32,000 bases of DNA from assembly GCA_026625185.1 (NCBI GenBank), contig CP113000.1, forward strand, positions 2,532,651 through 2,564,650, written 5' to 3'. The translations under genes were made by a program, and so were the position numbers. This document shows, in pieces, positions 10,132 through 30,972 of the stretch. The stretch's first letter is position 1, and each line of letters opens with the position of its first letter. This stretch comes from Thermodesulfobacteriota bacterium (lineage in GTDB: Bacteria > Desulfobacterota > WTBG01 > JAGOGO01). Under the pieces are notes generated by a model that was given only the letters and a program-made list of their open reading frames with translations, was not told the DNA's origin and searched no databases.

Positions 10132-10173
10132 TAGGCGGAGCAGGTTTCGAACCTACGACCTCCAGCTTGTAAG
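10132..10173 (-). repeat. Orphan 3' half of tRNA-Val (3' end to anticodon loop); att-like direct repeat of 13237-13278
   Basis: By eye, 41 of 42 nt match the 3' part of the intact tRNA-Val at 13237-13309 in the same orientation. Similarity stops at the 5' edge of the anticodon loop. No matching acceptor 5' strand or D-arm lies upstream. Confidence 0.8.
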
Positions 10174-12909: not shown

Positions 12910-13153
12910 CATACACCTCCTCGATATATTCATTAAGACCATACGGGTTTCCACGATCAAGCGGCCACACTAAAAACGTGGGGATTTCGTATGCCTTCAG
13001 ACCCAAGTGGAGAATTTTTTAACTTGAGTTTACGGCCCCTTGATGGACCGGGCCTTTGTTTTTTATGGTAAGATTGTATTGTTTCTTACGTTACAAGGTC
13101 AATTGTTTTTTCTCTCAAAGGTTTCACCCCTTTTATTCTGATTTTTATCGAAA

Positions 13154-13224: not shown

Positions 13225-13236
13225 GTTTCCATTTGA

Positions 13237-13309
13237 TAGGCGGAGCAGGTTTCGAACCTACGACCTCCGGCTTGTAAGGCCGGCGCTCTCCCAGCTGAGC
13301 TATCCGCCC
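13237..13309 (-). tRNA. tRNA-Val (anticodon TAC)
   Basis: The reverse complement GGGCGGATAGCTCAGCTGGGAGAGCGCCGGCCTTACAAGCCGGAGGTCGTAGGTTCGAAACCTGCTCCGCCTA folds as a cloverleaf. The anticodon stem is CCGGC/GCCGG with loop CTTACAA. CCA is not encoded. Confidence 0.9.
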
Positions 13310-13328
13310 ATAGACGGCTTTGGCAAGT

Positions 13329-15779: not shown

Positions 15780-15790
15780 TTTCGTATGAC

Positions 15791-17044
15791 CTATGCGGAT
15801 TTTATTTCTTTTTCATACATGAGAAGGGGGGATTCCCTCTTTAAGACTACTTCTTCATTAATAATGCATTCCTTAATGTTTGACTGTGAGGGAATATCAA
15901 ACATCAGATCGAGCATGATGTCTTCCATAATAGACCGTAGACCCCGCGCCCCGGTTTTGCGCTTGTTTGCTTGTTGAGAAATTGCCGAGAGCGCTCCCTT
16001 TGTGAAGCGTAGCTTAACATTTTCAAAGGAAAACATGGTCTGATACTGTTTGACTAAAGCGTTCTTGGGCTCAACCAGGATCTGCATCAGGGCTTCCTCA
16101 GAAAGCTCACTTAAGGTGGCGATCACCGGCAGACGGCCGATCAGCTCTGGGATCAGGCCATACTTGAGCAAATCCTCGGGCTGAATCTCGTTTAAAATTT
16201 TTCCGACTTTTCTTTCCTTTTTGCTTACAACATTACCCATAAACCCCATTGAGCTATGGCCTAAACGCTTTTCTATAATATCTTCAACCCCGTTAAACGC
16301 CCCACCGCAGATAAAAAGAATGTTCGTTGTATCAACCTGGAGAAAATCTTGCTGGGGATGTTTTCTACCGCCCTTGGGGGGAACATTTGCAATGGTTCCT
16401 TCAATAATTTTGAGAAGCGCCTGCTGCACGCCTTCCCCGGAAACATCACGGGTGATGGACGGTGAATCCGTTTTCCGGGAAATTTTATCAATCTCATCAA
16501 TGTAAATAATTCCTTTAGTGGTCCGCTCGATATCGTAATCCCCGGCCTGGAGGAGACTGAGAATGATGTTTTCGACATCTTCACCCACGTAGCCCGCTTC
16601 GGTAAGCGTTGTGGCATCAGCAATAGTGAAAGGCACATTGAGGATCTTTGCCAAGGTCTGTGCTAACAGGGTTTTGCCGGTTCCCGTCGGGCCGACCAAA
16701 AGGATATTGCTTTTCTGGAGCTCCACATCACTGACTGACTTTTTGGCCTCGATCCGTTTATAGTGGTTGTGCACCGCGACCGAAAGAATTTTTTTCGCTC
16801 GTTCCTGACCGATCACGTACTCGTCAAGGGTCTTTTTGATTTCTGCTGGTTTGGGTATCGTGGTGCTTTTCCGGGTCGCATCTTCTTTTTCATATTCTTC
16901 AGCGATGATATCATTGCAGAGTTCAATGCACTCATCACAGATATAGACCGAAGGGCCGGCGATCAGTTTTTTTACCTCATCCTGGCTTTTGCCGCAGAAC
17001 GAACAGAAGAGGTTGTTGTATTTATCGGAGCCTTTTTTACTCAC
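15791..17044 (-). CDS. clpX: ATP-dependent Clp protease ATP-binding subunit ClpX
   Basis: 417 aa with an N-terminal zinc finger ([11 protein letters not shown]...[10 protein letters not shown]), Walker A GPTGTGKT and the GYVGEDVEN pore loop. Confidence 0.95.
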
Positions 17045-17672
17045 TACTTTTTTCTCCTTTGTTCAGGATGGATTTGAGGTCCATAACCACGTGGGGATTT
17101 TTCTCGATCACCGCGTCAATGATGCCGTATTTTTTTGCTTCGTCGCCACTCATGAAATAATCCCGCTCGGTATCTTGCTGAATTTTTTCCAAAGGCTGGT
17201 TGGTGTGTCTGGTCAAGATCATGTCCAGTTCCTTCCTCATCCTGAGTATTTCACGGGCATGGATGTCGATATCCGTGGCTTGGCCCTGAATTCCGCCCAA
17301 CAGCTGATGGATTAAGATGCGGGAGTGGGGTAACGCGAAACGCTTACTCGGAGAGCCAGCCGCAAGCAGTAAAGCGCCCATGCTTGCCGCTTGTCCGAGG
17401 CAGATGGTGCACACATTAGGTTTTATATACTGCATGGTATCGTAGATCGCTAACCCTGCGGTCACGATACCTCCGGGAGAATTCAAATAAAGATAAATAT
17501 CTTTATCCGGATCTTCGGACTCCAGAAAAAGCATCTGGGCAATGATTAAGTTAGCGATGGTATCATCGATGGGGGTTCCCAGGAATATAATTCTGTCTTT
17601 TAAAAGTCGTGAATAAATATCATAAGCCCGTTCACCGCGGCTGGTCTGCTCGATCACAATGGGTACCAGCAT
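17037..17672 (-). CDS. clpP: ATP-dependent Clp protease proteolytic subunit ClpP
   Basis: 211 aa with [32 protein letters not shown] and the catalytic context [11 protein letters not shown]. It overlaps the clpX start by 8 nt. Confidence 0.95.
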
Positions 17673-17692
17673 CAGAAAATAGTCCTCCTTTG

Positions 17693-18982
17693 TTAAGATT
17701 TCTTTCGATCCACTGAAATTAGTTTAGCTTTTTCAGCAAGAAACGCAAGGGTTTTCTCCTCCAAGACTTTGGACTTGATCCGGTCTTTAGCCTCTTGCCC
17801 TGAGTGCTGTTCACTATCTTCCTCCGCGTCAGGAGACATATTTTTAAGATACGCTTTTATCTCCGATGGGTCAACTTCTATTCCTTCTCTTTTTGCTATA
17901 TCGGAAAGAAGGAAAGAACGCTTTACCTGAAATTCAGCGATCGGACGATAGGCTTCTTTAAGTTCCCGGTTCATCATGGGTGAGGAATCCATTTTGATTC
18001 CTTGGTTGGTCATCTGGGAACGCGCGTGATAAATTAAAAATTCAGTCTGTCGTTCAACCAAGGAGGGCGGAACGTCAAAGGGGTTATTTTCCAGAATTTT
18101 TTGGAGAAGATTATTATACATGGTAGAGCGGATGCGCTCTTCTTCCCTCCGAGTGATTTCTGTTTTTAAGTGGTCCTTAAGCACGGCCAGGGTTTCAAAC
18201 TCACCGACGTCACGGGCAAAATTATCATCCAGAGGAGGGGTAATTTTTTCTTTTATTTCTTTTATTGTTACATCAAACGTTATAGTTTTTCCAGCAAACT
18301 CCTTTTGTCCAAAATCTTCGGGAGTGGTAACAACAATTTCCCGGTTAGCTCCTGATCTTAACCCGATTAATTGGTTAGTAAATCCAGGGAGAAAGCTTTC
18401 GGGGGTGATTTCAATCAACCGATCCAGGACTTTCCCGCCTTTCAGAGGTTCTTTCTCAATGGTTCCGGCATAGTCAATGACCACGAAATCTCCGGAACGA
18501 ATAGAACGATCTTCCTCAACCGTTTTTAGTTGAGCGTGATAGGCGCGTATTTGCTCCAAATATTGGTTGACATCCTCTTCAGTGACCTCTAATTTTTCTT
18601 GCTCGGCTTCAATCCCTAGATAATCCCCCTTTAAATCAAGGGCAGGGGCAACCTCAACGCGGGCCGTGTACGTAAAATCTTTTTCCGGCGCGAACTTAGG
18701 GGTATCGATGATGGGAGGAGAAACAGGCAGGATGTTTGTTTCTTTAATAGCAGTTTCATAAGAGTCGCTGACGAGTTTGCTGATGACTTCGCCTTCGACC
18801 TGCTTTTTGTAAATCCTTTCCAAAACCGCGCGCGGGACCTTCCCAGGACGAAACCCTTTAATTTTTGCTGTTTTTCTCAAGTCAAAATAAAATTTCTCAA
18901 TCTCATTGCCGATACTATCCGCGGAGATTGTCACTTCGAGTTGCTTTACTACCGGGCTAATATCTTTCACTTCTTCTTTCAA
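17693..18982 (-). CDS. tig: Trigger factor
   Basis: 429 aa with the ribosome-binding signature GFRPGKVP near the N-terminus. It sits in the conserved position upstream of clpP-clpX-lon. Confidence 0.9.
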
Positions 18983-19027
18983 GTCGCTGGTTTCCTTATT
19001 AAAATATTAACATTACAACCACTTCCA

Positions 19028-19112
19028 TGCGAGAGGGGGGAGTTGAACCCCCATCCCGTTTTGCGGGGCTGGATCCTAAGTCCAGTGCGTCTGCCAATTC
19101 CGCCACTCTCGC
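19028..19112 (-). tRNA. tRNA-Leu (anticodon TAG)
   Basis: The reverse complement GCGAGAGTGGCGGAATTGGCAGACGCACTGGACTTAGGATCCAGCCCCGCAAAACGGGATGGGGGTTCAACTCCCCCCTCTCGCA has acceptor GCGAGAG/CTCTCGC, anticodon stem CTGGA/TCCAG, loop CTTAGGA and a long variable arm. Confidence 0.9.
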
Positions 19113-19128
19113 AAGGATTCTCTGTTCA

Positions 19129-19170
19129 TGGGCTGTCGGGTGATCGAACCCCAAGCCTACTCATTAAGAG
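19129..19170 (-). repeat. Orphan 3' half of tRNA-Lys (3' end to anticodon loop); att-like direct repeat of 30108-30149
   Basis: By eye, 39 of 42 nt match the 3' part of the intact tRNA-Lys(CTT) in the same orientation. Similarity stops at the 5' edge of the anticodon loop (CTCTTAA). No 5' half is present. It lies 16 nt from tRNA-Leu. Confidence 0.8.
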
Positions 19171-19570
19171 ATGATATACAGTAATTAATGATTTCAATAA
19201 CTTATCAAAACAATTTGCGAATTTGTAATGATAATTTAACTATTATACCCTATTTTGTCAAATAACAGTGGGAAAATAGGGGGAAAGTTTTCCTTTGTCA
19301 AGTTTAAAAAAAAATTACTTTTTGAAAAAATCACCCATTGATAAAAACCGACCCGTGAGGGATTCCGCTCAGGCGTATAGGTTAATAAGGGAAAAATTTT
19401 GTAAACTAATTGGGTTCTGTGTCAGGGAGGTTAAAAAATAAAAACCCCATATAACCATGGAATATTCCAGGGAAGAGAGTGAGGTGAGAGAAATAAAAAC
19501 ATGGCAGAAGCCTCTCCGGTTTATTCTCCTGAAAATCAAATTTGAAAAAAACGGCTAACCCCTATTTCAT

Positions 19571-20365
19571 TCACTGTAAGCCTTTTAAGGCTTCTTGAAC
19601 GGAAATGCCTCGATGAACAATTTTGCTGATTGCCTCAACAATTTTTGTTGGCCTGGAGTGCTGAAAAACATTTCGTCCAATGGAAACACCCGCACCTCCT
19701 GCATCCATACAACCTTTTACCATTTTCAACACATCTTCATCAGTATCCATCTTCTCTCCACCCGCAATCACCACCGGAACAAAACAACCCTCGACAACCT
19801 TACGAAATGTTTCCGGCGATCCCGTGTAAGGAACTTTGACAATATCTGCGCCCAATTCAGCCCCAACCCGGGCAGCATGTTTTACTAGTTCCGGATCATA
19901 TTGGTTCTTGATTTTCGGGCCACGGGTGTAAATCATTGCTAAAAGGGGAAAACCCCATTTCCTTGCTTCACGAGATACCTCCCCCAAATCACTGAGCATA
20001 ATTTTCTCATCCTCAGCTCCGATATTTACATGAATCGAAACCGCGTCTGCTCCTATTTCAATCGCTTCTTCTATGGTGCAGATTAATGTTTTGGAATTCG
20101 GATCCGGAGCTAAAGAAGTGCTGGCCGACATATGAATTATAAGCCCTAAATCTTTTCCCCCTCCACGGTGACCGGTTTCCACCAAACCTTTGTGGATTAC
20201 AATCGCATTTGCTCCCCCTTCAGCTACAGCGTTGACCGTAGATTTCCAATCGACGAGTCCCTCCACCGGACCGATGCTGATTCCATGGTCCATGGGTATT
20301 ATTACCGTTTTTCCTGAATTTCGATCAATGATGCGTTCTAAGCGGATTTGTTTCCCGATTTTCAC
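19571..20365 (-). CDS. DhnA-type class I aldolase (ADH synthase AroA'/FbaB family)
   Basis: [31 protein letters not shown]...[12 protein letters not shown]...[12 protein letters not shown]...[11 protein letters not shown] (Schiff-base Lys context)...[12 protein letters not shown] prefer the GTG at 20365, which follows AGGAGG by 5 nt. The track ORF starts at the ATG at 20449, adding 28 unconserved residues. Confidence 0.8.
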
Positions 20366-20840
20366 CTTTTCCTCCTTTAAAAATGAATCAATAAATTCTC
20401 TGGTATTCAAAAATCGCCAGGTTTTTTGTAACGATGATTCAACTTGCAATTTTTAAAAAAAACTTAATCAAATCTGATTAGTTTAACTTTTCGCCCCCCA
20501 ATTGGGAAACAAAGGTGATCGCATAATAACATAAGTTATTTTTATACGCAAATGGCATAATTTTAACTCTAAATGTGGTATATGTTTTGGGTGCCGGTCA
20601 ACCTAAGGCCACGTCCATTTAAACTGCATCGAAGGATTTTGGAGTTATACCAAACATTGGCTTTATCCCTCACGGGGAGAGCCGATAAAAACTTTTCATC
20701 TTTTTCTTGGAGAAATTTAGTTCGTTTTAAACACAGAAACAGAGATTTTCCCCTTGACTTACAAATTATTAAGAAGTACTGGCTATAACAAATAAAACAA
20801 ACTTTGGTCCGGAATCATTAACCATTACCTAAAATAAAAG

Positions 20841-21668
20841 ATGACCGATTATTTTGCCGGAATCGACATCGGCTCCACCATGACCAAGGTTGTGGTCATG
20901 GATGCGGGGATCATCTCCTCGGTTATTGAGCCTACTGGCCCGGAACAGCGGAGATTGGCCCACCGGGTCATGGAAACTGCACTCCGTCAGGCTCAACTTC
21001 CTTTTGAGTCCATCACCTACCTCGTCGCCACCGGCTACGGCCGGATTAATGTCTCCTTTGCGGATAAACAACTCACCGAAATAAGTTGTCATGCCCGGGG
21101 AGTGACGCACCTTTATCCCCAGACACATACCCTCATTGATGTTGGAGGACAAGACAGCAAAGCAATCAAAATAACTGACGGCAAACCCTTTGACTTTGTT
21201 ATGAATGACAAGTGTGCGGCTGGTTGCGGAAGATTTTTAGAGGTGATCGCGGATTCCCTGGGAATCACCCTGGAAAAGATGGATAACCTATCATTGCAGA
21301 GTTTCAACCCGGCTCACGTGAGTAACCTCTGTACCGTGTTTGCGGAACAGGAGGTTGCAACGAAACTCTCGGAAGGAATACCCATTCCTGATTTGGCCGC
21401 TGGTATCCTGATATCTTTAGCTGACCGGATCGCAGCCATGGCAAAAAAAATTAAACCAACCAGGGAGGTTGTCATGACCGGCGGCGGGGCAAAAATAAAA
21501 GGCTTGGTAAACGCGCTTTCCAAAGCTCTTGGTTACCCATTACTGATCCCCTCGGAACCGTTGCTGACCGGCGCCCTAGGAGCGGCTTTGCTGGGGAAAG
21601 ATATGGTTGAGAAGGCTTTCAAGACCGGTGAGCATTTGGGGCTGGAGAAGCGTTGTTTAAAAAAATAA
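20841..21668 (+). CDS. HgdC/BcrAD/BadFG-family [4Fe-4S] ATPase (radical-enzyme activase), canonical paralog
   Basis: ASKHA motifs are present: GIDIGSTMTKVVV, DVGGQDSKAI and MTGGGAKIKG. The cluster-bridging Cys contexts NDKCAAGCGRFLE and NLCTVFAEQE are also present. Its 3' end overlaps the convergent Fe-S gene by 12 nt. Confidence 0.85.
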   Translation: MTDYFAGIDIGSTMTKVVVMDAGIISSVIEPTGPEQRRLAHRVMETALRQAQLPFESITYLVATGYGRINVSFADKQLTEISCHARGVTHLYPQTHTLIDVGGQDSKAIKITDGKPFDFVMNDKCAAGCGRFLEVIADSLGITLEKMDNLSLQSFNPAHVSNLCTVFAEQEVATKLSEGIPIPDLAAGILISLADRIAAMAKKIKPTREVVMTGGGAKIKGLVNALSKALGYPLLIPSEPLLTGALGAALLGKDMVEKAFKTGEHLGLEKRCLKK

Positions 21669-23033
21669 AGGTTGCTTAACGTTACCCCGCGTTTCTCTTC
21701 CAAGAAGCTGTGCAATATGCATAACTTTAATAGGTAACTGATGACGACGCACTCCATCCATAAGCTGGATGAGGCAGCCCGGACACGAAGTAACGACCAC
21801 TTGAGCATTGGTTTTTTTAATGGCCTCTATTTTTTTTGCCTGAATGGCAAGGCTGATTTCCCGGTGCTTTATTCCAAAGGACCCTCCTAGACCGCAACAG
21901 GTGTCTGCTCCTTTCATCTCAATAAACGTTACTCCTTCGAGGGCATGTAAAATCTTTCGGGGAGCATCGTGGATCCCCTGGTGCCAACGCAGATGGCAGG
22001 GGTCATGGTACGTTACCCGAAGCGGAAAGGCAGTGATTTGGCGAGGATTGAAACCCGGTCTAACCAGAAACTCGGAGAAATCATAAATCTTTTGGGAAAG
22101 TTCCCGGGCTTTTTCCCGGATGGGATCTTTCGGGGAAAATAAGTCGCCGTATCTTTTGAGTGCCGCGCTGCAGGTAGCGCACCCGGTAACAATAGCAGCA
22201 AAGGAAGATAATACATCAATATTCTTTCGGGCCATAAGGGTTGCTGTTTCCAAATCCCCTGCACTTTGGACTGCCAGCCCGCAACAGGTTTGTCCGAAAG
22301 GATTAACCACCTCAAAACCAGCCTCGGCCAAAGCAAAGACCATGTCTTTACCGCTATCGGCAAAAAAGAACTCCAACCCGCAACCCGGGAAAAAGGCTAC
22401 TTCACCACGCCTCTGAATACCAAAAAGAGGAAGCGTGCGCAGGGGAATGCGCTGGGAAAGAAAAGGCGAGGAGAGACGGGGGAGCGCCAGCCCCCTGGAA
22501 AAGATTGAGGCAAAGTCAGCCAAATGGCGAAGAGGTTTTCCTTCGTTGATCGAACACCCGGGAATTTTTGTGGCTAACCCCAGAAGTCTGGCTACCAGTG
22601 AGCGGTGTTTCAGGATTCCTCGGTAGACAAGTTGCTCAGTCCAGTTAAGACCTTTCTGAGTTACCAGCCGGGCCCGCGCCTGCACGGCAAGTGTTGCGGA
22701 TGATATTCTGGCCGGGCAGGTAGCCTCACATCGGCCACATAAAATGCAGAAGGAAAGGACATCCCGGTAGGTGCCTTCAGTGTTAATTTCCCCTTTGTTT
22801 GCCCACTGAATGAGCAGGTTCCTCCCCCGGGCAACATGACTTTCCATATGGTCAACACCATATACCGGGCAGGAAGACATGCAGAAGCCGCATTTCATGC
22901 AGCGGGAAGCGTCATCAACGGAAGTTAGGTAATCCATATTTTTCTGAATTTCTGTAACCCGTTGCCCGGAGCGAAGCGTGTTGAAAGCTCTTGAGTACCC
23001 ATTATGGTGAGCAGTAAGGAGCAAATGTTCCAC
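21657..23033 (-). CDS. (Fe-S) oxidoreductase, GlcF/GlpC/LutA-like (2x[4Fe-4S] ferredoxin motif plus two CCG domains)
   Basis: The ferredoxin motifs are CMKCGFCMSSCP and CILCGRCEATCP. The two Cys-rich CCG-type modules are FFPGC...QTCCG and YHDPCH...DTCCGLGG...SCPGC. It lies directly downstream of the glcD-like gene. Confidence 0.8.
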   Translation of the reverse strand: MEHLLLTAHHNGYSRAFNTLRSGQRVTEIQKNMDYLTSVDDASRCMKCGFCMSSCPVYGVDHMESHVARGRNLLIQWANKGEINTEGTYRDVLSFCILCGRCEATCPARISSATLAVQARARLVTQKGLNWTEQLVYRGILKHRSLVARLLGLATKIPGCSINEGKPLRHLADFASIFSRGLALPRLSSPFLSQRIPLRTLPLFGIQRRGEVAFFPGCGLEFFFADSGKDMVFALAEAGFEVVNPFGQTCCGLAVQSAGDLETATLMARKNIDVLSSFAAIVTGCATCSAALKRYGDLFSPKDPIREKARELSQKIYDFSEFLVRPGFNPRQITAFPLRVTYHDPCHLRWHQGIHDAPRKILHALEGVTFIEMKGADTCCGLGGSFGIKHREISLAIQAKKIEAIKKTNAQVVVTSCPGCLIQLMDGVRRHQLPIKVMHIAQLLGRETRGNVKQPLFF

Positions 23034-23099
23034 CCATAGGAACCTCAGATGGGTTACTGCAAAGGCTGTGAATTGCGGGGCAAAAGGTTTTCACAATTA

Positions 23100-24479
23100 C
23101 TACCAAATCTTTCCGGGGTTAAGAATTCCCTTGGGGTCAAAAACTTTTTTTATTTCTTTCAAAAGTTCGATGGCTTCGGCCGGCAAAGCCTGTTTCAGAA
23201 ATCTCTTTTTTTCCAAACCAATTCCATGTTCTCCGGAAAGGACTCCACCGAGATCTAAAGCCGCAGCAAATATATCGTCCAGGGCTTTCTCCGCCCGGGC
23301 ATAGTGGGCGGGATCTTTTCGATTCGTTAAAATAGCGGGATGGAGGTTCCCGTCTCCCGCATGACCAATAATGACAATAGTTAGATTGTAAGTCCGGGCA
23401 CATCTTCTGATTCTGCCGATCAATTCGGGGATCCGGTTTATAGGTACGGTAACATCTTCGGCCAACACTGTGGGAGCGTTGCCGAAAATAGCGGAAAACC
23501 CTGCCCGGCGTGCAGTCCAGAAATTTTCTGCTTCATTGGCATCACGAGCGGGCCTGACGTCAATTGCCCCGGTTTTTTTACAACAATCAACAACCCCTTC
23601 CGTTTCTTTTTTCACTGCTTCGGACATCCCATCGAGTTCAAAAAGAAGAATTGCTTCTGCTGTTAGCGGAAGCCCCAAGGGGGTTACTTCTTCGATTCGT
23701 TGGATTAACCAGTTATCCATAAGCTCGATCTTGGCCGGCATAATTCCCGAAGCAAAAATCCGTTGGACAGTTTCTCCTGCAGTCACGACATTATCAAAGA
23801 CGGCAAGTACGGTCTGGTGTGCCTGGGGAAGGGGTAAGAGCCTCAGGGTAACCTGGGTTATAACCGCTAACGTTCCCTCGGAACCGCAGATGAGTTGAGG
23901 GAGATCATACCCGGTTACGTTCTTCATGGTCTTTCCACCCAGATCAATGATAGTACCAGAAGGAAGGACGGTCCGCATTCCCAGAAGGTAATGTTTAAAA
24001 ACCCCGTATTTAACCGCATAAGGACCGCCGGCGTTTTCCGAAACGCAGCCCCCAAGGGTAGCGGCCAAGAAACTTTGCGGGTCAGGAGGGAAAAAAAGCC
24101 GATGCTTGACGAGTTCCTGGTTTAGGTCATGGAGTACCACCCCCACCTCAGCGGTTGCGCTAAAATTAGCCGCATTAATTGCAATGATCCTGTTCATACG
24201 GGTGGTGCAGAGAACAATACCCCCGAGGACTGGAATCGAACCTCCACTGACATTGGTGCCTGCACCACGCACGGTAACCGGGATAACGTCCTGAGTGGCA
24301 AGTTTCATAATCTCTGAAACCTGGTCAGTGGTGGTCGGAAAAACGACGACCTCCGGCTTTGCCTCCCAATTGGTGGTACCGTCATACGAATAGGTGAGTA
24401 AGTCCACGGGGGAGGTAAGCACACCTTTCTCCCCCGCGATTTTTCGAAGCCTTTCAGTAGTGCCTTTGGGAAGCCCCAT
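23100..24479 (-). CDS. FAD-linked oxidase, GlcD / D-lactate (D-2-hydroxyacid) dehydrogenase-like
   Basis: 459 aa with an FAD_binding_4 pattern (VVVFPTTTDQVSEIMKLA...PVTVRGAGTNVSGGSIP) and a C-terminal FAD-oxidase_C pattern (GHAGDGNLHP...GVLSGEHGIGLEKK...DPKGILNPGK). Confidence 0.85.
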   Translation of the reverse strand: MGLPKGTTERLRKIAGEKGVLTSPVDLLTYSYDGTTNWEAKPEVVVFPTTTDQVSEIMKLATQDVIPVTVRGAGTNVSGGSIPVLGGIVLCTTRMNRIIAINAANFSATAEVGVVLHDLNQELVKHRLFFPPDPQSFLAATLGGCVSENAGGPYAVKYGVFKHYLLGMRTVLPSGTIIDLGGKTMKNVTGYDLPQLICGSEGTLAVITQVTLRLLPLPQAHQTVLAVFDNVVTAGETVQRIFASGIMPAKIELMDNWLIQRIEEVTPLGLPLTAEAILLFELDGMSEAVKKETEGVVDCCKKTGAIDVRPARDANEAENFWTARRAGFSAIFGNAPTVLAEDVTVPINRIPELIGRIRRCARTYNLTIVIIGHAGDGNLHPAILTNRKDPAHYARAEKALDDIFAAALDLGGVLSGEHGIGLEKKRFLKQALPAEAIELLKEIKKVFDPKGILNPGKIW

Positions 24480-24888
24480 AATTTCTCTTTTTTTTGTTGG
24501 TTTGCTGTTCCTGCGGTTTCTTCATATAATAAAATCATATCTGAATTCGGGCGATTCTGCAATGCCTTCTGATTAACGCACCCAAACCATTGAAGCCATC
24601 AGAGAGAATGAAGGTGATTTCTCAGTTTTTTTAATATGATAGATAGGATGACAATATTCATTAATTCAAGGCAACGTTAAAAACACACCCCAGTTTACCA
24701 GAGACGGGTTGTCAAAAGATTTTGCAGAGGCTAAACTTAACTTTTCGTGATGGTGCTTAAGTGCTTTACCTTCCGACAAGTAACCTATTAGAATTATGAA
24801 CAAATTACTTTTTCTGGTTCAACGGTGAGGAGGTTTTTTTCTCTCTTCGCCTTGGTAAATTTTTGAAAATATCGAAATCGTTATTTCC

Positions 24889-24917
24889 TTGACAAAAAAG
24901 TAATTATTTGATATAAA
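24889..24917 (+). promoter_or_regulatory. Near-consensus sigma-70 promoter for the MBL-activase-dehydratase operon
   Basis: TTGACA (24889-24894), a 17-nt spacer, then TATAAA (24912-24917). Confidence 0.6.
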
Positions 24918-25076
24918 AATTATTTTTTTATGGCAAAAATCATTATTTTAAGTATTCGAAGGGATTTTTGCAAGAACATAAGCTTTAGAACCAATATGAT
25001 TTTGATTCGCAGGGAAATTTGCCGGCATAAAAACCTCTCGAACGTCAGGTGCAAAACAAACAAGGAGAAAAAAACA

Positions 25077-26006
25077 TTGAACGAAAAAACATTCAAGCCA
25101 ATTAAAGCTACCCAAACCTTTTACCAGCTGGGCACCTCTTCCTTTCCAGCCTATTTATCCCTGGGCGAAAAAGGGATGATCATTGAAGGAGGTACCGGCG
25201 CAACCTTCAAAATCATAGTAAACCAAATCGAAGAGTTGGGTATTGACCCGAACCGGATTCAATTTATTGTTTTAACGCATACCCACGCCGACCATATCGG
25301 TGCAGTCCCCCGTTTAAAAAGTATCTGGCCCCATGTAAAAGTTTTAGCAAGCCCGGTAGCAGCCAAGACCGTGAGTAAAAAAGAGATGTATGAAGACTTC
25401 CTTTGCACCGACCAAGCTATTGCGGAGATCCTGAAAGGCAAAGGAGATATCGCTACATTACCACCGACACTGCAAGATTATTCTTTTGCCGTTGACCAGG
25501 TCCTTAAAGATGGTGATACGATAGATTTGGGTGCTGGGATTTCCTGGACCGTTTACCATGCCCCCGGACATTCCCCCTGCCACATTGCCTTGTTTGAAGC
25601 AAAAGAAGGAACCCTCGATATTGGTGATTCGACCGGTTTTTATGTTCCAGAAAAAGACGTTTTTTGGCCAAATTACTTTGAGTCACTGGAAAAATACTGC
25701 GATAGTATCCGCAAACTTTCTTCGATTCCTGCTCAAAGGATTGTTTTGAGTCATAACTGCGTGATCGAGGGGGGAGTTAAAAAGCATTTTGAAAAGGCGC
25801 TCAAGGCAACCCAACACTACCATCAGGACCTCATCAGAAGAGTAGAAGCTGGCGAAGATTCAGAAGCAATCGCTTTAGAAAAAGCTCAGTGGGTAAGCAG
25901 CCTCACCGATATCCTCCCTTTTGAGGCAATAGTTAGTCTGGCCAAACTCCTGATAAAACGTTCCCAACAAGAAGTTGAAAAACCAAAGTTGTTTATCTTC
26001 GAATAG
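25077..26006 (+). CDS. MBL-fold metallo-hydrolase
   Basis: The metal motif LTHTHADHIG is followed by HAPGHSP and downstream D/H ligand positions (DSTG, SHN). I prefer the TTG at 25077, which follows AAGGAGA by 8 nt. The track ORF begins at the ATG at 24930, but its first 49 aa are basic, low-complexity and AT-driven. Confidence 0.75.
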   Translation: MNEKTFKPIKATQTFYQLGTSSFPAYLSLGEKGMIIEGGTGATFKIIVNQIEELGIDPNRIQFIVLTHTHADHIGAVPRLKSIWPHVKVLASPVAAKTVSKKEMYEDFLCTDQAIAEILKGKGDIATLPPTLQDYSFAVDQVLKDGDTIDLGAGISWTVYHAPGHSPCHIALFEAKEGTLDIGDSTGFYVPEKDVFWPNYFESLEKYCDSIRKLSSIPAQRIVLSHNCVIEGGVKKHFEKALKATQHYHQDLIRRVEAGEDSEAIALEKAQWVSSLTDILPFEAIVSLAKLLIKRSQQEVEKPKLFIFE

Positions 26007-26109
26007 GCAGATCCGGTTCAGGTTCTTTGAACTGATCGAACGGTGTCACTCCCTTCCCGTTCAGGAAATGTCCCGTTAGCTTTAACCCCAAAGCAAGATT
26101 TAAAAAAAA

Positions 26110-26892
26110 ATGAGCGTATATGCGGCAGGGATTGATATCGGGTCAGCATTTTCCAAAGGAGTCATTTTTAAAAACAAACAGACTTTGGGTTTTTGTTGCA
26201 TTCCCTCGGGAGGAGATTATAGGGCGACTGCTGAGAAAATAAAAAAAGAACTGCTTTCTAAAACCGGCCTCTCTTCACCTGCGCCAATTTTTACGGTAGC
26301 GACTGGTCTGGGCGCAAAGATGGTAGGTTTTGCTGATGTAATCAGAACTGAATTATCCTGCCATGCAAGAGGAATTATCACTATTTTCCCTTCCGTAAGA
26401 ACAGTTGTGGATATTGGCGATTCTTACAGTAGAGCGTTGCGGATTGATGAACACGGCCATCTCTTAAAATTTTTATTGAGTGGTAAGTGTGCCGGAGGAA
26501 GTGCAAGGATCTTAAAAAAAATTGCCAAAATTTTACAGGTAAAACTCGAGGAGTTGGGGCCCCTGTCATTGCGTTCCCAAAAACAGGTTGATTTTAACAC
26601 CAACTGTGCCGTTTTTGCTGAGTCGGAGGCAGTATCCCGGATTGCGGAAGGAGCCTCCAAGGAGGACCTTTTGGCCGGAATACACCGAGCGTTAGCAGCT
26701 CAAGTCAATAATCTTGCCGAACGGGTTGGAATAGAAAAGGACTATGCATTGGTTGGTGGGGGAGCAAAAGATGAAGGTCTGGTTAAGGCAGTGGAGTTGA
26801 TGAACGGCTTTAACCTTGTGGTGCCGTCTGAACCCCTTCTTACGGCTGCACTCGGCGCTGCAATTCTTGCGGAAGAAATGGCACCAGCCTAA
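26110..26892 (+). CDS. HgdC/BcrAD-family ATPase, divergent paralog
   Basis: It has GIDIGSAFSKGVI, Cys contexts SGKCAGGSARIL and NTNCAVFAESE, and LVGGGAKDEG. The phosphate-2 motif reads DIGDSYSRAL instead of D(I/V)GGQD. Confidence 0.8.
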   Translation: MSVYAAGIDIGSAFSKGVIFKNKQTLGFCCIPSGGDYRATAEKIKKELLSKTGLSSPAPIFTVATGLGAKMVGFADVIRTELSCHARGIITIFPSVRTVVDIGDSYSRALRIDEHGHLLKFLLSGKCAGGSARILKKIAKILQVKLEELGPLSLRSQKQVDFNTNCAVFAESEAVSRIAEGASKEDLLAGIHRALAAQVNNLAERVGIEKDYALVGGGAKDEGLVKAVELMNGFNLVVPSEPLLTAALGAAILAEEMAPA

Positions 26893-26925
26893 CCGGTTAC
26901 TTAAAAGCGTTTTTAAAAGGAGAAA

Positions 26926-28092
26926 ATGTTAATGGAAGAAAAGCAAAAAGGCATGTGGCCATTGGTGGAAAAGTATTACCAGGACTACGGCAGCCGGGCG
27001 AGAGAACTAAAAAAGGATGGGATAAAGTTTATGGGATATATCTGTTCCTTTGTTCCGGTTGAAATTATCCGGGCTGCCGGTTTTGTTCCTTTTAGGATCA
27101 GGGGCAACGTGCATGAGCCGATCACCAAAGGTAATACTCAGTTGGAAACTATTGCCTGTCCTTTTATGCGAAGTTGTTTCGATCTTTCCTTCAAAGGACA
27201 CTACGACTTTTGTGAAGGGGTTATTATACCCCACGCCTGCGACAGCATGACCAGGTCTTACAGTGTATGGAAGTATTCACTCGGACTTCCCTATTCTCAT
27301 TTTGTTAATGTCCCGCACACCGTCAACGCAGCCTCACTCCAGTTTTTTGAGGCCGAGCTTAATACCTTTCGAAAAAGCTTAGGGAGGTATGCGGGTAAAG
27401 AGATCAACACGGCAGAAATTGCTCAGGCTATTACCGCCTATAACCAACTGCGAAAAAAAGTTAAAGCCCTTTACGAGCTCCGGAAGACCAATCCCCCTCT
27501 GGTCTCAGGAACGGAGATGGCAAAGTTGCTCACGGTAACGGCCGGGCTTCCAGTGGAAGAAGCCAACCTCCTCTGCGATCAAGCCCTTGACCAACTGCCC
27601 CAGCGCACCGCGCCTTCCGACAAAAAGTTCCCCCGGATTCTGATTGATGGTGCCTGCATTGACAACATCGATCTTGTGCAACTTGTTGAAGAGAGTGGTG
27701 CCAGCGTAGTGGCCGATGACCTCTGTCTGGGCATGCGGGACTTTTGGCCAACCACTGACGTAGACCAGGATCCCCTCAAGGCGCTCAGCCGCCGTTATCT
27801 TGAGAAGTTGAACTGCCCCCGTACCTTTCGGCAGAGCCCGGGAGGGAGCCTGTCTGATGACCTGCAGGCGCGGTTCGGAGATATGGGGGCGCACATCAAA
27901 GAGTTCGGGGTTGACGGGATTATTATCTATGTTTACAAATACTGTGATCCCTTCGGCTTTGAGGTTTCAGCCCGCAAGGCCTACCTAAGCTCCCTGGGGG
28001 TCAGCATCCTTTACCTTGAGGACGAGTACTCGGCCGGTACCATTGGCCGCCTGAGGACTAGGATTCAGGCATTTCTGGAAATGATGGGGTAA
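26926..28092 (+). CDS. HGD-D family subunit, BcrC/BzdN/HgdB-like
   Basis: 388 aa with family Cys contexts IACPFMRSC, PHACDSM and YKYCDPFGFE, and the C-terminus LEDEYS. An alternative ATG at 26932 has better SD spacing. Confidence 0.8.
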   Translation: MLMEEKQKGMWPLVEKYYQDYGSRARELKKDGIKFMGYICSFVPVEIIRAAGFVPFRIRGNVHEPITKGNTQLETIACPFMRSCFDLSFKGHYDFCEGVIIPHACDSMTRSYSVWKYSLGLPYSHFVNVPHTVNAASLQFFEAELNTFRKSLGRYAGKEINTAEIAQAITAYNQLRKKVKALYELRKTNPPLVSGTEMAKLLTVTAGLPVEEANLLCDQALDQLPQRTAPSDKKFPRILIDGACIDNIDLVQLVEESGASVVADDLCLGMRDFWPTTDVDQDPLKALSRRYLEKLNCPRTFRQSPGGSLSDDLQARFGDMGAHIKEFGVDGIIIYVYKYCDPFGFEVSARKAYLSSLGVSILYLEDEYSAGTIGRLRTRIQAFLEMMG

Positions 28093-28201
28093 AACAGAAG
28101 GGGTGAACTGCCGGAACAGTGGAGTCGTGGGAAAAACGAACCCATACCCCATTATCCCCAATACATGAGAAGAAGTACTATTATGATGGAGGTTTTTATT
28201 T

Positions 28202-29602
28202 ATGGCTGAGGAGCAGAAGAAGAACGAAAATCAAAAACGAAGAACCGCCACTAAGGCTGCATCCATGATTGGTCCGATGGTTAAGGAATTGATCGCCGCC
28301 ACCCATCGCGCCAAAGCAGAGGGAAAGAAACTCGCCTATACTTTTATCTCCTGTCACTACGAAGAAATCGTCCGGGCGATGGATGTCGTGCCGGTGTGGA
28401 CAGAGAATTTTGCGGGAATCTGCGGAGCAAAGCGTGATGCCGAGAGATTCCTTTCCCGGGCCGAGTCCCTCGACTTTTCCCGATCCCTGTGTTCCTATGC
28501 CCTGTGTGGTATTGGATTTGATCAGTGGCGTGAAGATCTCGGAGAAATGCCCCCCGATCCCCCCTGGGGGGGACAGGGCCGGCCGGATATGATGCTCTCC
28601 AGCGGCCAGATTCTCTGTGACCCCCGCAACAAATGGTATCAGGCAGCGCAGCAGTTCATGCCCGATGTCCCCAACTATAACTTCAGCATCCCCTGGCCTC
28701 TTTATGATGATGATATCGAGCTGACAGAAATCGAGCCTTATTACATCAAGTACATTGTCTCGGAATTAAAGGGCCTCATCGCCTTTCTGGAAACCCAAAC
28801 CCAGAAGAGAATGGATTACGACCGCTTGGGGGAACTGGTGAATCTCACCGAGCGCACCTGGAATATGATCTGGGAGACTTACGAGCTCCGGCGCGCTGTG
28901 CCCACCCCGATGGATACCGGCGACGCGATGAACACTATGGTGCCCTGGGCATTCATGATGGCCACCCAGGAGAGCTATAACTTCTTCGCTGAGTTAAACC
29001 GGGAGCTTAAAGAAAAAATTGCCAGAAAGGAAGGAGTTATCAAAGATGAGAAATATCGGTTGCTCTGGGGCGGAGGCCTTCCCGCCTGGTTTGCGCTCAA
29101 GGATTTCAACTATTTTAACAGCAAAGGTGCGGTGTTCCCGGTAGAGACCACCTACCGTTTAATTGAACCGATTTACCGCCTCAACATTCCTGATACCAAT
29201 GACCCACTGGAACGGATCGCCTACCGCTGGTTTCGTTACTGGACCTATATGTACGACAAAGCCAAGAAAAGGCCGGGCTCGGAACCGGACGTGGAGCGCC
29301 TGATTCAGTTCATTGAGGATTATAAGATAGACGGGGTGGTAATGCACGAAGCCTTTTCCTGCCGCACCTGGCACCTCGGCCTAATCTGGCAGCTCAGCCA
29401 GCTCAAGAAAATCTATAAGCCGGTGCCGTTCCTCACCATAGGGCCGGATGGCACCAAAAATGTGGAACACCGGGAGCTGCCCACCCTGATACTGGAAAGT
29501 GATATCATCGACATCAACTCCTATTCCGAGGCGGATACCCGGAATCGCATTGATGCCTTTATCGAGACCCTGGAATCAATCAAGAAACAGCGGGAAAATT
29601 AA
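28202..29602 (+). CDS. HGD-D family subunit, BcrB/BzdO/HgdA-like
   Basis: 466 aa; GGAGG lies 9 nt upstream of the ATG. Motifs include SLCSYALCG, RPDMMLSSGQILCDPRNKW, EKYRLLWGGGLPAW, IDGVVMHEAFSCRTWHLG and LESDIIDINSYSEADTRNRIDAFIETL. Confidence 0.8.
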   Translation: MAEEQKKNENQKRRTATKAASMIGPMVKELIAATHRAKAEGKKLAYTFISCHYEEIVRAMDVVPVWTENFAGICGAKRDAERFLSRAESLDFSRSLCSYALCGIGFDQWREDLGEMPPDPPWGGQGRPDMMLSSGQILCDPRNKWYQAAQQFMPDVPNYNFSIPWPLYDDDIELTEIEPYYIKYIVSELKGLIAFLETQTQKRMDYDRLGELVNLTERTWNMIWETYELRRAVPTPMDTGDAMNTMVPWAFMMATQESYNFFAELNRELKEKIARKEGVIKDEKYRLLWGGGLPAWFALKDFNYFNSKGAVFPVETTYRLIEPIYRLNIPDTNDPLERIAYRWFRYWTYMYDKAKKRPGSEPDVERLIQFIEDYKIDGVVMHEAFSCRTWHLGLIWQLSQLKKIYKPVPFLTIGPDGTKNVEHRELPTLILESDIIDINSYSEADTRNRIDAFIETLESIKKQREN

Positions 29603-29657
29603 CTCGTTATCCGGTTTAGCTCATTGTCTGGTTTACAAACCAGGGCACGTTTATCAA

Positions 29658-29863
29658 CGACCCTTTAATGCGGCGGTTCTAAAGTATATCGCCATCGATC
29701 CTAAACGTTATTCCTTGAAAGATGTCCGACACACCACTGCGAGCTTAATGCACCGCAAAGGGGTTCATACCAAGTCGCCTTTATTTGTATATCTTTGTTG
29801 TCTCGTCATACTCCTCGACGCACTTAAATGTACGCCTGCGTCGATTTCTCGTCGCCGTCTTGA
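29658..29863 (+). pseudogene. Tyrosine recombinase/integrase C-terminal remnant (5'-truncated, frameshifted, with an internal stop)
   Basis: Frame 0 reads RPFNAAVLKYIAIDPKRYSLKDVRHTTASLMHRKGV, matching the HxLRHT.As.l...Gv box. A +1 shift then gives LLSRHTPRRT*MYACV, resembling LLGH....T..Y(catalytic Tyr)ahv. Only about 70 codons remain. It lies 245 nt from the tRNA-Lys 3' end. Confidence 0.55.
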
Positions 29864-30107
29864 TCTACTTTTAAATGCAACTTGGTATCATGTATTGGCA
29901 AACAAAGACCAATTACGACCTACTAAAGTAAAAATTACTATCGATTTCTATATTGGGTCAGATAGGAGATATTAATGTAAATAGATTAAGGAATTGATTC
30001 TCAATAGTGGGGAAAAATCGGGAAATGATGATTTTTTAAATTACCCGGATTACCTATAAGACTACCTACAAAATTAAAACAACTTAATAAATTAGAGGGT
30101 TAGGTAA

Positions 30108-30180
30108 TGGGCCGTCGGGGGATCGAACCCCAAGCCTACTGATTAAGAGTCAGTTGCTCTGCCGATTGAGCTAACGGCCC
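30108..30180 (-). tRNA. tRNA-Lys (anticodon CTT)
   Basis: The reverse complement GGGCCGTTAGCTCAATCGGCAGAGCAACTGACTCTTAATCAGTAGGCTTGGGGTTCGATCCCCCGACGGCCCA folds as a cloverleaf with anticodon stem ACTGA/TCAGT and loop CTCTTAA. Confidence 0.9.
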
Positions 30181-30339
30181 TTAACACCTTTAGAAAGTCC
30201 CGCTGCTTGCCGCTTAGAAATTTTTCATTATTACCAATGAGTTCTCTTTAGTAAGCTGCTTCTAACAGGCAAACAGCGGATATAATTTCCTTTTGGTGCT
30301 AATCACATTGGGAGGTCGGAGACCTTCTAACGTGGTTTA

Positions 30340-30416
<77 letters not shown>

Positions 30417-30420
30417 CAAA

Positions 30421-30495
30421 GGTGAGTGAAGGGATTCGAACCCTCGACCACTGAGGCCACAACCCAGTGCTCTAACCAGCTGAGCTACACCCACC
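30421..30495 (-). tRNA. tRNA-His (anticodon GTG, with encoded G-1)
   Basis: The reverse complement GGTGGGTGTAGCTCAGCTGGTTAGAGCACTGGGTTGTGGCCTCAGTGGTCGAGGGTTCGAATCCCTTCACTCACC has loop TTGTGGC. An extra 5' G lies opposite the discriminator C, as is typical of tRNA-His. Confidence 0.85.
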
Positions 30496-30509
30496 ATAAA
30501 TTTCATGAA

Positions 30510-30583
<74 letters not shown>

Positions 30584-30972
30584 AGATATTGAAACATTTG
30601 GAAAAAAATATCAATAAAAAAAACTGAAACTTTTATTTTCTTTTAGAATACAGAAGTCAAGCGATTTATTTTTAACTAGCTTATCTTTTTTATATTTTTC
30701 AATAGAACAAGCTTTTTGTCAACAGGTCATTTCAAAAGAATGATTCACCTTAAAATTTTTTGTTGACATAACGAGCGATTATTAGTAAAGATTCAATTCT
30801 GTTGGATAAAAAATTCCAAAAATGAAGGTGTTTAAAGTTACGAAAAACCTTTACAGTTTGTAAAAAGTATATATTTTATCGTTCTGAAACTCCGCTAACC
30901 AACGTGTTCCTTTTTCCTAAAAATTCAGGAAATATCAATGATTTAGCTCTATCTTTTTCTATTTTTTTGGAT

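Follow-up and report, generated by a model that had tools for sequence, protein, structure and literature searches.

The stretch of DNA analyzed here (the window, 32 kb in length) contains a group of tRNA genes upstream of the protein quality control genes tig, clpP, clpX, and lon, with 10.9 kb of DNA bracketed by an intact tRNA-Lys and by an orphan copy of its 3′ part (Table 1). Both features had been proposed in a preliminary description of this DNA. The intact tRNA-Lys(CTT) on the minus strand was recovered with ARAGORN and Rfam, and the same-orientation copy without a 5′ half, described as 42 nucleotides with 39 identical, was found again with one more flanking base. A repeat search of the window reported a single direct repeat, in which 40 of 43 nucleotides (93%) are identical, on the same strand, between 19128–19170 and the core identity block of attL at 30107–30149, a similarity far beyond chance in 32 kb. 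The orphan copy opens precisely with the anticodon loop (CTCTTAA), at its 5′ edge; the sequence before that point shows no resemblance to the 5′ half of the tRNA, and a native spacer of 15 nucleotides (rather than the 16 first counted) separates it from tRNA-Leu. All three mismatches of the copy (C40G, C61A, and G68A) are at stem positions; they could be drift of a nonfunctional copy, as the preliminary description proposed from C61A, which breaks a base pair, or differences already present in the attP of the element, the data fitting both.

Table 1. Features of the island and of the genes that flank it, in window coordinates
Feature	Position	Strand	Evidence or remark
tRNA-Leu(TAG), tig, clpP, clpX, lon: downstream genes of the original transcription unit, now displaced	13329–19113	minus	
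tRNA-Leu(TAG)	19027–19113	minus	ARAGORN, Rfam
attR: orphan 3′ part of tRNA-Lys, anticodon loop to 3′ end	19128–19170	minus	3 mismatches
Distal att arm	19171–19290	plus	alignment, motif searches, promoter scan
DeoC-family aldolase	19571–20449	minus	Pfam, NCBIfam
Second activase-type ATPase	20841–21668	plus	Pfam, NCBIfam
Fe-S/CCG-domain partner, similar to GlcF, GlpC, LdhH	21657–23033	minus	Pfam, NCBIfam
GlcD-like FAD-linked oxidase	23100–24479	minus	Pfam, NCBIfam
MBL-fold protein	24930–26006	plus	Pfam, NCBIfam
Acyl-CoA dehydratase-activase-type ATPase	26110–26892	plus	Pfam, NCBIfam
HGD-D family subunit, first	26926–28092	plus	Pfam, NCBIfam
HGD-D family subunit, second	28202–29602	plus	Pfam, NCBIfam
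Tyrosine-integrase pseudogene, C-terminal ~100 codons	29625–30059	plus	phmmer, alignment, blastp, tblastn
Hairpin insertion, MITE-like, 123 bp, inside the integrase pseudogene	29766–29888		alignment, fold
Integrase-proximal att arm	29985–30107	plus	motif search; overlap with the integrase pseudogene at the 3′ end of the latter
tRNA-Lys(CTT), intact (attL)	30108–30180	minus	ARAGORN and Rfam, 69 bits
Spacer between tRNA-Arg(TCG) and tRNA-Lys, 158 nt	30181–30338	minus	
tRNA-Arg(TCT), tRNA-His(GTG), tRNA-Arg(TCG): upstream part of the split operon	30339–30584	minus	ARAGORN, Rfam

The decayed C terminus of a tyrosine recombinase that had been suspected just inside the intact tRNA-Lys proved to be real by phmmer, alignment, and blastp. 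[quoted passage not shown] With a 123-bp insert removed, it is 59–62% identical to residues 272–362 of 371-residue tyrosine integrases (blastp), and local blastp matched it to the proteins P0350 and P0321 over 88–93 residues at E values of about 1e-30. Full-length proteins matched by the remnant in a phmmer search of 1.84 billion representatives carry the Pfam domain PF00589; the remnant itself gave no Pfam (including PF00589), PHROGs, or PDB sequence match, even at E = 10, because the 123-bp insertion interrupts it. The RHT box and the tyrosine of FYIGSD are retained, LRH has changed to LRP, and there are two in-frame stops. The loss of the integrase inferred in the preliminary description is thus upheld to the extent that only a C-terminal pseudogene, and not a functional gene, lies by the regenerated tRNA, but the loss was not simple drift, as the N-terminal ~260 codons have been deleted up to the stop codon of the neighboring cargo gene and a hairpin has been inserted. 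This hairpin (fold z −4.8) is absent by alignment from L014, an independent contig that is otherwise collinear, and at least 12 short, unrelated open reading frames of the protein library contain its translation. A “frameshift” reconstruction of the remnant (LLSRH...MYAC) was rejected, as it had read through the insertion. Compared with L014, the remnant shows 11–16% divergence and several indels, and the adjacent HgdB gene 2.6% nucleotide divergence. A tblastn comparison with phages returned one weak match (E 0.2) at the correct position of an integrase gene, which is no more than suggestive. A split integrase of the SSV type was also considered and rejected, as the window has no N-terminal integrase fragment and the att core is located past the stop codon of the integrase. 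With ~260 N-terminal codons of the integrase missing and no further recombinase gene seen in the island's annotated open reading frames, the island can presumably no longer excise.

Intact versions of the integrase, which the preliminary description had suggested seeking, do exist beside tRNA genes with the same geometry and the same duplicated segment from anticodon loop to 3′ end. In the type example, L086, an element of 7.8 kb with an intact integrase of ~371 residues, an HTH_3 gene and int lie beside tRNA-Thr(CGT); int ends 26 nucleotides from the convergent tRNA, and a perfect 47-nucleotide repeat of the 3′ part of the tRNA is found 7,842 bp away. The arrangement of int and tRNA at two further loci, L085 and L083, is that of the window and L086. 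In the window as in L086, the identity block extends from near tRNA position 31–32 to the 3′ end, int and tRNA are convergent (48 nucleotides with a 43-nucleotide block in the window, 26 with a 47-nucleotide block in L086), and a tandem AGTGGGAAAATAGNGGGAA motif is found on both sides of the core, with the second copy inside the 3′ end of int. The L086 integrase finds the remnant in the window by tblastn at an E value of 2e-20. The two loci differ in the target, which is tRNA-Lys(CTT) in the window and tRNA-Thr(CGT) in L086, in the truncation and interruption of the window integrase, and in the backbone, which in the window is wholly gone, with a 10-kb metabolic cluster instead. Among the backbone genes of L086 are DUF3854, DUF5659, and an HTH_3 gene that overlaps the start of int; in tblastn comparisons of the backbone proteins of L086 and L090 with the window, nothing matched except the integrase remnant, and no metabolic cargo is present in the two intact family elements examined. 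Elements with the 371-residue integrase are uncharacterized and come from Thermodesulfobacteriota, Syntrophales, and related metagenomes. The window island and these elements define a previously undescribed family of integrases and att arms in uncultivated Thermodesulfobacteriota. A scan of genome contigs with the integrase alignment also revealed a further integrase remnant, L082, without a tRNA left, and a scan of viral contigs with the same alignment yielded a distant integrase only.

The att arms provide a second line of homology to the intact element. The proximal arm carries the tandem motif AGTGGGGAAAAATCGGGAAA at 30006–30025, and this motif is found also at the 3′ end of int in L086, L085, L082, and L014. 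The distal arm aligns with positions 889–1004 of L086 (about 80% identical by eye) and carries the tandem motif AGTGGGAAAATAGGGGGAAA at 19267–19286, starting 97 nucleotides from the core, as it does in L086. Exactly two tandem AGTGGGAAAATAGNGGGAA motifs occur in the window, one at each end of the island, and L086 has two copies at the same spacing. The sequence AGTGGGAAAATAGTGGGAA is a candidate arm site of the integrase. The distal arm also bears on the suggestion that a TATAAT could serve as replacement promoter for tRNA-Leu and tig. The hexamer is present (19247–19242, minus strand) and the idea is plausible, but the promoter scan offers a better candidate on the minus strand, an outward TTGACA (19261–19256)-17-TAAATT (19238–19233) that faces tRNA-Leu and tig, overlaps the TATAAT, and lies within the conserved distal arm. 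tRNA-Leu and tig would now be transcribed from this promoter-like site or by read-through from the aldolase gene.

The empty site that an insertion implies was sought in close relatives and is present in four contigs (L003, L004, L005, and L007), in which Arg-His-Arg-Lys tRNA genes are followed after 15–16 nucleotides by tRNA-Leu and tig with nothing between. The trigger factors of these relatives are 86–92% identical to that of the window; a separate scan of genome contigs with tig gave no match. Collinearity with the empty-site relatives stops exactly at 30107 and 19170, either copy in the window can be aligned with the 43-nucleotide segment of every one of these relatives, and the native tRNA-Lys genes of L003, L004, and L007 have the same sequence as the window tRNA-Lys. 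The block from tRNA-Leu through tig, clpP, clpX, and lon is collinear with L003, L005, and L007 at 88–92% nucleotide identity (blastn). The empty sites, the integrase family, and the homology of the distal arm to L086 all support the original proposal that an element entered tRNA-Lys of an Arg-His-Arg-Lys-Leu operon, and it can be held with high confidence that the 10.9-kb island was inserted at tRNA-Lys by an integrative element and later immobilized.

How this would have happened can be outlined from the features that survive. A small element with a lambda-type (arm-plus-core binding) tyrosine integrase of ~371 residues would have had an attP that duplicated the tRNA sequence between the anticodon loop and the 3′ end. 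Recombination would have taken place between this attP and the chromosomal tRNA-Lys(CTT), which stood fourth in an Arg-His-Arg-Lys-Leu tRNA operon continuing directly into tig-clpP-clpX-lon. Integration would have rebuilt a working tRNA-Lys beside the integrase gene (attL) while moving the 3′ half-tRNA, the 15-nucleotide spacer, and tRNA-Leu 10.9 kb off (attR). Immobilization would then have involved deletion of the first ~260 integrase codons and all of the backbone genes, leaving only the two att arms, with the integrase remnant gaining two stop codons and the 123-bp hairpin repeat.

The genes carried between the arms are metabolic. The cargo operon at 24930–29602 is a cluster conserved in L009, L010, L017, and L026; broad synteny links the GlcD-like/Fe-S pair to the ATPase and MBL genes, and the second ATPase in other genomes directly follows the large HGD-D subunit. 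A circular permutation, which would put the displaced second ATPase beside HgdB across the att junction, was also weighed, but it is speculative and unsupported. The aldolase scores 374.9 bits against the NCBIfam model TIGR01949 (cut-off 299), that of 2-amino-3,7-dideoxy-d-threo-hept-6-ulosonate (ADH) synthase. The island is predicted to encode an enzyme of the benzoyl-CoA-reductase/2-hydroxyacyl-CoA-dehydratase type, a GlcD-like dehydrogenase together with the Fe-S protein that partners it, and an aldolase of the ADH-synthase type, and dN/dS values of 0.1–0.4 point to a coherent metabolic cluster under purifying selection. The preliminary description had named native composition, when combined with a vertical phylogeny of the cargo genes, as counting against an insertion. 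By GC content, codon usage, and tetranucleotide profile, the island is indeed indistinguishable from the flanking core, so that one half of that pair holds and composition gives no hint of a foreign source; the empty sites outweigh this result.

The metabolic cluster either arrived with the element or replaced the interior of the element later. In the second case, which is a serious possibility at somewhat less than an even chance, the att/int module and the cluster have separate histories, a chromosomal cluster having taken the place of the interior of a backbone-bearing element. The route would be deletion and recombination with DNA of the host or a near relative, and the “cargo” would never have been mobile. 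Replacement would require at least two further events within a small element, and neither boundary showed a recombination scar, insertion sequence end, or repeat; both boundaries nevertheless fall exactly at gene ends, at 29602 (next to the truncated integrase) and at ~19584. The latter is where homology ends with L016, in which the same cargo occurs at ~95% nucleotide identity with different genes beyond the aldolase, an IS3-type transposase inside the cluster, and no att arm within 3.7 kb. These differences speak for a cluster with a history of its own, as do the core-like composition of the island, the presence in the phylum of the cluster as a widespread conserved neighborhood, and the contrast between intact family members without such cargo and a window without backbone. 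L016 may, however, hold this island in a longer form that ends outside the contig, and L014 and L017 share the internal order of the window. The dS values do not discriminate in tying L016 to any empty-site genome.

A more specific version of the immobilization step starts from the point of integrase loss, which is nearly the same in three independent remnants (the window, L085 at tRNA-Thr(TGT), and L082), with breakpoints within ~30 nucleotides at a CAGAGTGGGTATTTT sequence resembling the arm-site motif. That the element was immobilized by site-specific secondary recombination in the integrase gene, and that a distal-arm promoter evolved for the host genes that were cut off, is an improbable reading. 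If true, secondary recombination would swap the element backbone for other DNA and fix the element, and the outward TTGACA-17-TWAATT would restore host expression, of tRNA-Leu and tig-clpP-clpX-lon here and of a thioredoxin-like gene in L086.

Comparison of core genes is informative about when the element arrived. Between the window and L003/L005, dS is 0.12–0.27 (tig, clpP, and clpX), compared with 0.08 to L014, which fits an insertion later than the split from L003/L005 but earlier than that from L014. An island ancestral to the clade, lost from the empty-site relatives by precise integrase-mediated excision, would leave exactly the tRNA-Lys, 15 nucleotides, and tRNA-Leu of L003, L005, and L007, and the host-like composition fits long residence. 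Yet the site is empty in each of three lineages at growing distance (tig 92%, 91%, and 86% identical), which makes a single gain more parsimonious, and the 3 differences in 42 nucleotides of the orphan half are about the dS within the island clade (0.08) and below that to the empty-site relatives, making this reading very unlikely. That no mobile element was involved, the half-tRNA being a product of local tRNA-gene duplication (tRNA operons do duplicate and decay) or of mis-assembly over a short repeat in a contig from a metagenome-assembled genome, has almost no probability, as the two repeat copies are exactly where an integrase pseudogene and a pair of arms with homology to an intact element are found, the junctions are repeated in independent assemblies and samples, and an imperfect repeat of 43 nucleotides is too short to mislead modern assemblers. 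An assembly artefact in particular is excluded because the island-tig arrangement recurs in other assemblies of the organism (at least three similar places, contigs over 1 Mb among them) and L014 has the same junction of HgdB, integrase remnant, and tRNA-Lys.

The immobilized tRNA-Lys island is an ordinary representative of a very common kind of element, and understanding of the mechanism is unchanged by it. In the Islander survey (Hudson, Lau & Williams 2015, PMC4383910), a regenerated target and a displaced 3′ tDNA fragment are the mark of an island; the 3′ fragment was present in 3760 of 3919 islands and an anticodon-centered attP in 2083. The window island resembles those of attP sublocation class “A” (anticodon-centered) in its intact regenerated tRNA at one end, the same-orientation 3′ fragment from the anticodon loop at the other, an integrase (here a pseudogene) beside the intact tRNA, and an empty site in relatives. 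Unlike them, it retains no mobility genes, and its integrase is a quarter-length pseudogene beyond PF00589 detection. It would probably be overlooked by an Islander-type search, for which an integrase must be recognized by Pfam; a small repeat interrupting an integrase remnant lets islands escape profile-based detection. With domesticated metabolic or “fitness” islands it shares a functional cluster, purifying selection, and fixation by recombinase loss, whereas its cargo is compositionally native and drawn from a neighborhood widespread in the same phylum. If the cargo was transferred at all, its source was a close relative or the genome itself. The locus catches a tRNA-targeted island after domestication, with the two att arms and one quarter of the integrase still there, the backbone gone, and a complete anaerobic-metabolism cluster locked directly upstream of the main protein quality control operon. 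The L086-type family of integrases and att arms could serve for mapping islands in uncultivated Thermodesulfobacteriota genomes.

The spacer between tRNA-Arg(TCG) and tRNA-Lys, which in relatives measures 3–4 nucleotides and in L007 about 29 (alignment, blastn), folds in the window as a very stable long hairpin (−56.7 kcal/mol, z −7.3) and is probably an independent small insertion outside the island. A half-copy of tRNA-Val looked like the mark of another island whose site is empty in relatives, but that empty site is not upheld, since by alignment the sequence immediately downstream of the intact tRNA-Val is present in L003 and L005 as well. By the tRNA-Arg/His/Arg group lies a promoter-like site, TTGACA-17-AAAAAT at 30722–30694, which is conserved in L003.

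That an element inserted into the tRNA-Lys gene of an Arg-His-Arg-Lys-Leu operon, as the preliminary description had proposed, is supported by empty sites in relatives, by integrase homology and by homology of the attachment arms. Well supported yet not surprising, the feature belongs to the commonest class of tRNA-integrated islands and is both decayed and immobilised. A 3' tDNA fragment accompanies 3760 of the 3919 islands in the Islander survey, with an anticodon-centred attP in 2083, and the island in the window fits the established picture of such tRNA-targeted islands (PMC4383910). Newly delineated is the family of integrases and att arms to which it belongs, from uncultivated Thermodesulfobacteriota.

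The six tRNA genes of the window, called by ARAGORN and checked with Rfam, all lie on the minus strand, and Rfam gives no further above-threshold match in the window. The one long direct repeat that a repeat search finds in the region pairs 19128-19170 with 30107-30149 (43 nt, 93% identity). On the tRNA strand (19170-19129), the orphan copy has its 5' edge exactly at the anticodon loop (CTCTTAA) and extends to the tRNA 3' end, and the bases preceding it bear no likeness to the tRNA 5' half. The same-orientation half-copy is thereby confirmed, although its distance from tRNA-Leu is 15 nt, not the 16 nt first given.

Genes of the island and tRNA genes of the window; cargo assignments are from Pfam and NCBIfam profiles
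Feature	Position	Strand	Basis
tRNA-Val(TAC)	13235-13310	-	ARAGORN, Rfam
tRNA-Leu(TAG)	19027-19113	-	ARAGORN, Rfam
DeoC-family aldolase, above NCBIfam ADH synthase cut-off	19571-20449	-	
Activase-type ATPase (first)	20841-21668	+	
Fe-S/CCG protein	21657-23033	-	
GlcD-like FAD oxidase	23100-24479	-	
MBL-fold protein	24930-26006	+	
Activase-type ATPase (second)	26110-26892	+	
HGD-D subunit	26926-28092	+	
HGD-D subunit (HgdB)	28202-29602	+	
Integrase pseudogene	~29625-30059	+	A3, local search
tRNA-Lys(CTT)	30108-30180	-	ARAGORN, Rfam
tRNA-Arg(TCG)	30339-30414	-	ARAGORN, Rfam
tRNA-His(GTG)	30420-30495	-	ARAGORN, Rfam
tRNA-Arg(TCT)	30509-30584	-	ARAGORN, Rfam

Relatives chosen via their trigger-factor homologues (92% identical to that of the window in L003/L004, 91% in L005, 86% in L007) carry the expected empty site in 4 of 4 contigs: acyl-CoA dehydrogenase/ETF genes are followed by Arg-His-Arg-Lys, a 15-16-nt spacer and then Leu, tig, clpP, clpX, lon and tRNA-Val. 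In alignment A1 and whole-contig blastn, collinearity with the window stops exactly at 30107 and restarts at 19170, each relative's sole 43-nt segment aligns with both window copies, and it is the orphan copy, rather than the intact gene, that the native 15-nt spacer adjoins. Compared with three sister lineages, the window thus carries an insertion of 10,937 bp between the two copies. Changes are confined to the orphan copy, the relatives' gene and the window's intact tRNA-Lys being identical.

The translation from 29601 onwards, LKDVRHTTASLMHRKGV, has no match in Pfam, PHROGs or PDB sequence searches, and tblastn against 2.3 Gb of phage records gives one weak match, which falls on the RHT box of an integrase gene. 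In an exhaustive phmmer search of 1.84 billion representative proteins, residues 11-57 match full-length proteins of 370-415 aa, all PF00589 Phage_integrase by Pfam, and the matches to residues ~50-101 are a dozen unrelated short ORFs with 66-86% identity. The second set is explained by a 123-bp hairpin-forming repeat (z -4.8) inserted in frame into the remnant at 29766-29888, exactly the segment absent from L014, an independent contig of 1.7 kb in which the HgdB-remnant-tRNA-Lys junction recurs and HgdB is 97% identical to that of the window. The repeat is MITE-like, with termini ATACCAAGT...ACTTGGTAT; its translation, HTKSPSFVYLCCLLVILLDVLK.TPASIPRRRLDLLLNATWY, occurs in at least 12 unrelated short predicted proteins of public metagenomes, and the repeat is therefore widespread.

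With the repeat excised, the remnant can be aligned with the C-terminal ~100 residues of the integrase family (A3), retaining the RHT box and the FYIGSD tyrosine but with LRH changed to LRP and two in-frame stops. In a local search it is 59-62% identical to residues 272-362 of 371-aa members over 88-93 residues (E ~1e-30), which bears out the reported tyrosine-recombinase C-terminus. The pseudogene is convergent with tRNA-Lys, 48 nt away, and lacks its first ~260 codons, homology beginning a few bases from the HgdB stop codon at 29602. The window and L014 remnants are 11-16% divergent and are further separated by several indels, versus 2.6% divergence in HgdB, and so behave as unconstrained DNA. 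Three C-terminal remnants, independent and each in a different context, start within ~30 nt of one another relative to the intact gene (window ~29603-29625, L082 ~9990-10010, L085 ~355-370), near a CAGAGTGGGTATTTT sequence resembling the arm motif described below; this common breakpoint could reflect chance, ascertainment or a recombination hot spot.

Intact versions of the integrase were found adjoining tRNA genes, in a family of at least 288 members, mostly of 369-371 aa. In L086/L087/L088 int converges on tRNA-Thr(CGT) and stops 26 nt short of it, and a perfect 47-nt repeat of the tRNA-Thr 3' part, reaching the anticodon loop, lies 7,842 bp off; the backbone between comprises an HTH_3 gene overlapping the int start, DUF3854, DUF5659 and a Terminase_2-like HTH protein. 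L083 and L085 have the same int-tRNA geometry at a tRNA(TGT). The distal end of the island (19171-19290) aligns to the L086 sequence beside its orphan half (A6; identity ~80% by eye, over the conserved stretch), sharing the blocks TAATGATTTCAATAA, AATTTGTAATGA, ACCCTATTTTGTCAA and AGTGGGAAAATAGNGGGAA. The last, searched as AGTGGGRAAAANNNGGGAAA with at most 2 mismatches, has exactly two matches in the 32 kb of the window (19267-19286 and 30006-30025) against an expected 0.05, a generous comparison since the pattern is partly window-derived; A6 is independent of that pattern. The motif also occurs twice in L086 at equivalent places, the distal copy beginning 97 nt from the core in both, and at the int 3' end of L085, L082 and L014; its copies are putative arm-type integrase-binding sites. 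The arm homology and the motif at each end mark both island ends as the arms of a single attP of this integrase family, with tRNA-Lys as core instead of tRNA-Thr.

With its two ATPases and two HGD-D subunits, the cargo has the subunit make-up of class I benzoyl-CoA reductases and related enzymes, but none of the four reaches an equivalog cut-off. Many related contigs have these genes together as a conserved neighbourhood; in L017 and L016 the island interior has the same order at ~95% nucleotide identity, and cargo dN/dS against these contigs is 0.1-0.4, like core genes. The expected compositional contrast did not appear: GC is 46.5% in the island and 45.6% in the core, codon usage does not differ (permutation p = 0.43), and tetranucleotide correlations are equal. 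Apart from the integrase remnant, tblastn detects no L086 or L090 backbone protein in the window. It is quite possible, if not the favoured reading, that the metabolic cluster replaced the element interior after integration instead of being carried in. L016 has the same cluster, but its match to the window ends exactly with the stop codon of the aldolase (~19584); isochorismatase and nitroreductase genes come next, and the first 3.7 kb past the aldolase contain no att arm.

In other genomes (e.g. L010 10001-12251) the first ATPase comes immediately after the large HGD-D subunit; in the island, L016 and L017 it lies ~7 kb from HgdB, past the FAD-oxidase/Fe-S pair, and the cluster was thus rearranged before or during capture. 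L016 also carries an IS3-type (rve) transposase in the aldolase-ATPase spacer (4705-5899), and the FAD-oxidase/MBL spacer has an additional ~400-nt segment in L016 (37-464) and L017 (3791-4194) that the window lacks.

A promoter-like TTGACA-17-AAAAAT lies upstream of tRNA-Arg(TCT) in the window and L003, and in L003 no promoter-like or same-strand terminator-like site occurs between the tRNAs or before tig, so the five tRNAs and tig were probably one transcription unit originally. In the window, tRNA-Leu and tig are now 11 kb from that site. Of the replacement promoter proposed near the distal end, the TATAAT is overlapped on the minus strand, within the conserved distal arm, by TTGACA (19261-19256)-17-TAAATT (19238-19233), a candidate promoter for tRNA-Leu/tig, and L086 has TTGACA-17-TTAATT in the equivalent place, facing a host gene starting ~17 nt past the half-tRNA; the count of promoter-like sites is, however, not above shuffled expectation, which makes the distal-arm promoter a lead, not a result.

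Core dS between the window and L003/L005 is 0.12-0.27 (tig, clpP, clpX), and HgdB dS against the island-bearing L014 is 0.08; an insertion after the split from L003/L005 and before that from L014 would fit these values. The differences of the orphan copy, at 3 of 42 positions, agree with this timing too, though so small a number has a wide error. They (C40G, C61A, G68A) each fall at a stem position; the earlier reading had linked C61A to drift, but all three could equally have pre-existed in attP if crossover occurred near the 3' end.

The 158-nt spacer between tRNA-Arg(TCG) and tRNA-Lys (30181-30338; 3-4 nt in L003/L004/L005, ~29 nt in L007) folds into a very stable long hairpin inside the tRNA operon (-56.7 kcal/mol, z -7.3), with no second copy in the window or the relatives' fetched loci. 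A 3'-half orphan copy of tRNA-Val(TAC), from anticodon loop to 3' end (10132-10173; 41 of 42 nt identical), is oriented like the intact gene and located 3.1 kb downstream of it. Between the copies are an MshEN-type c-di-GMP-binding AAA+ ATPase (11503-12960) and a TPR protein (10487-11293), and no integrase remnant was seen there. The ~100 nt that adjoin intact tRNA-Val on its downstream side, a tandem ATTCCCAACAC motif among them, are common to the window, L003 and L005 (A9). These two relatives therefore give no evidence of an empty site, which may mean an older or shared insertion. The adjoining lon (13329-15779) has a dS of 0.57-0.59 against L003/L005, versus 0.12-0.27 for clpX, clpP and tig (15791-18982), a contrast suggesting a recombination boundary or mosaic ancestry inside the operon.
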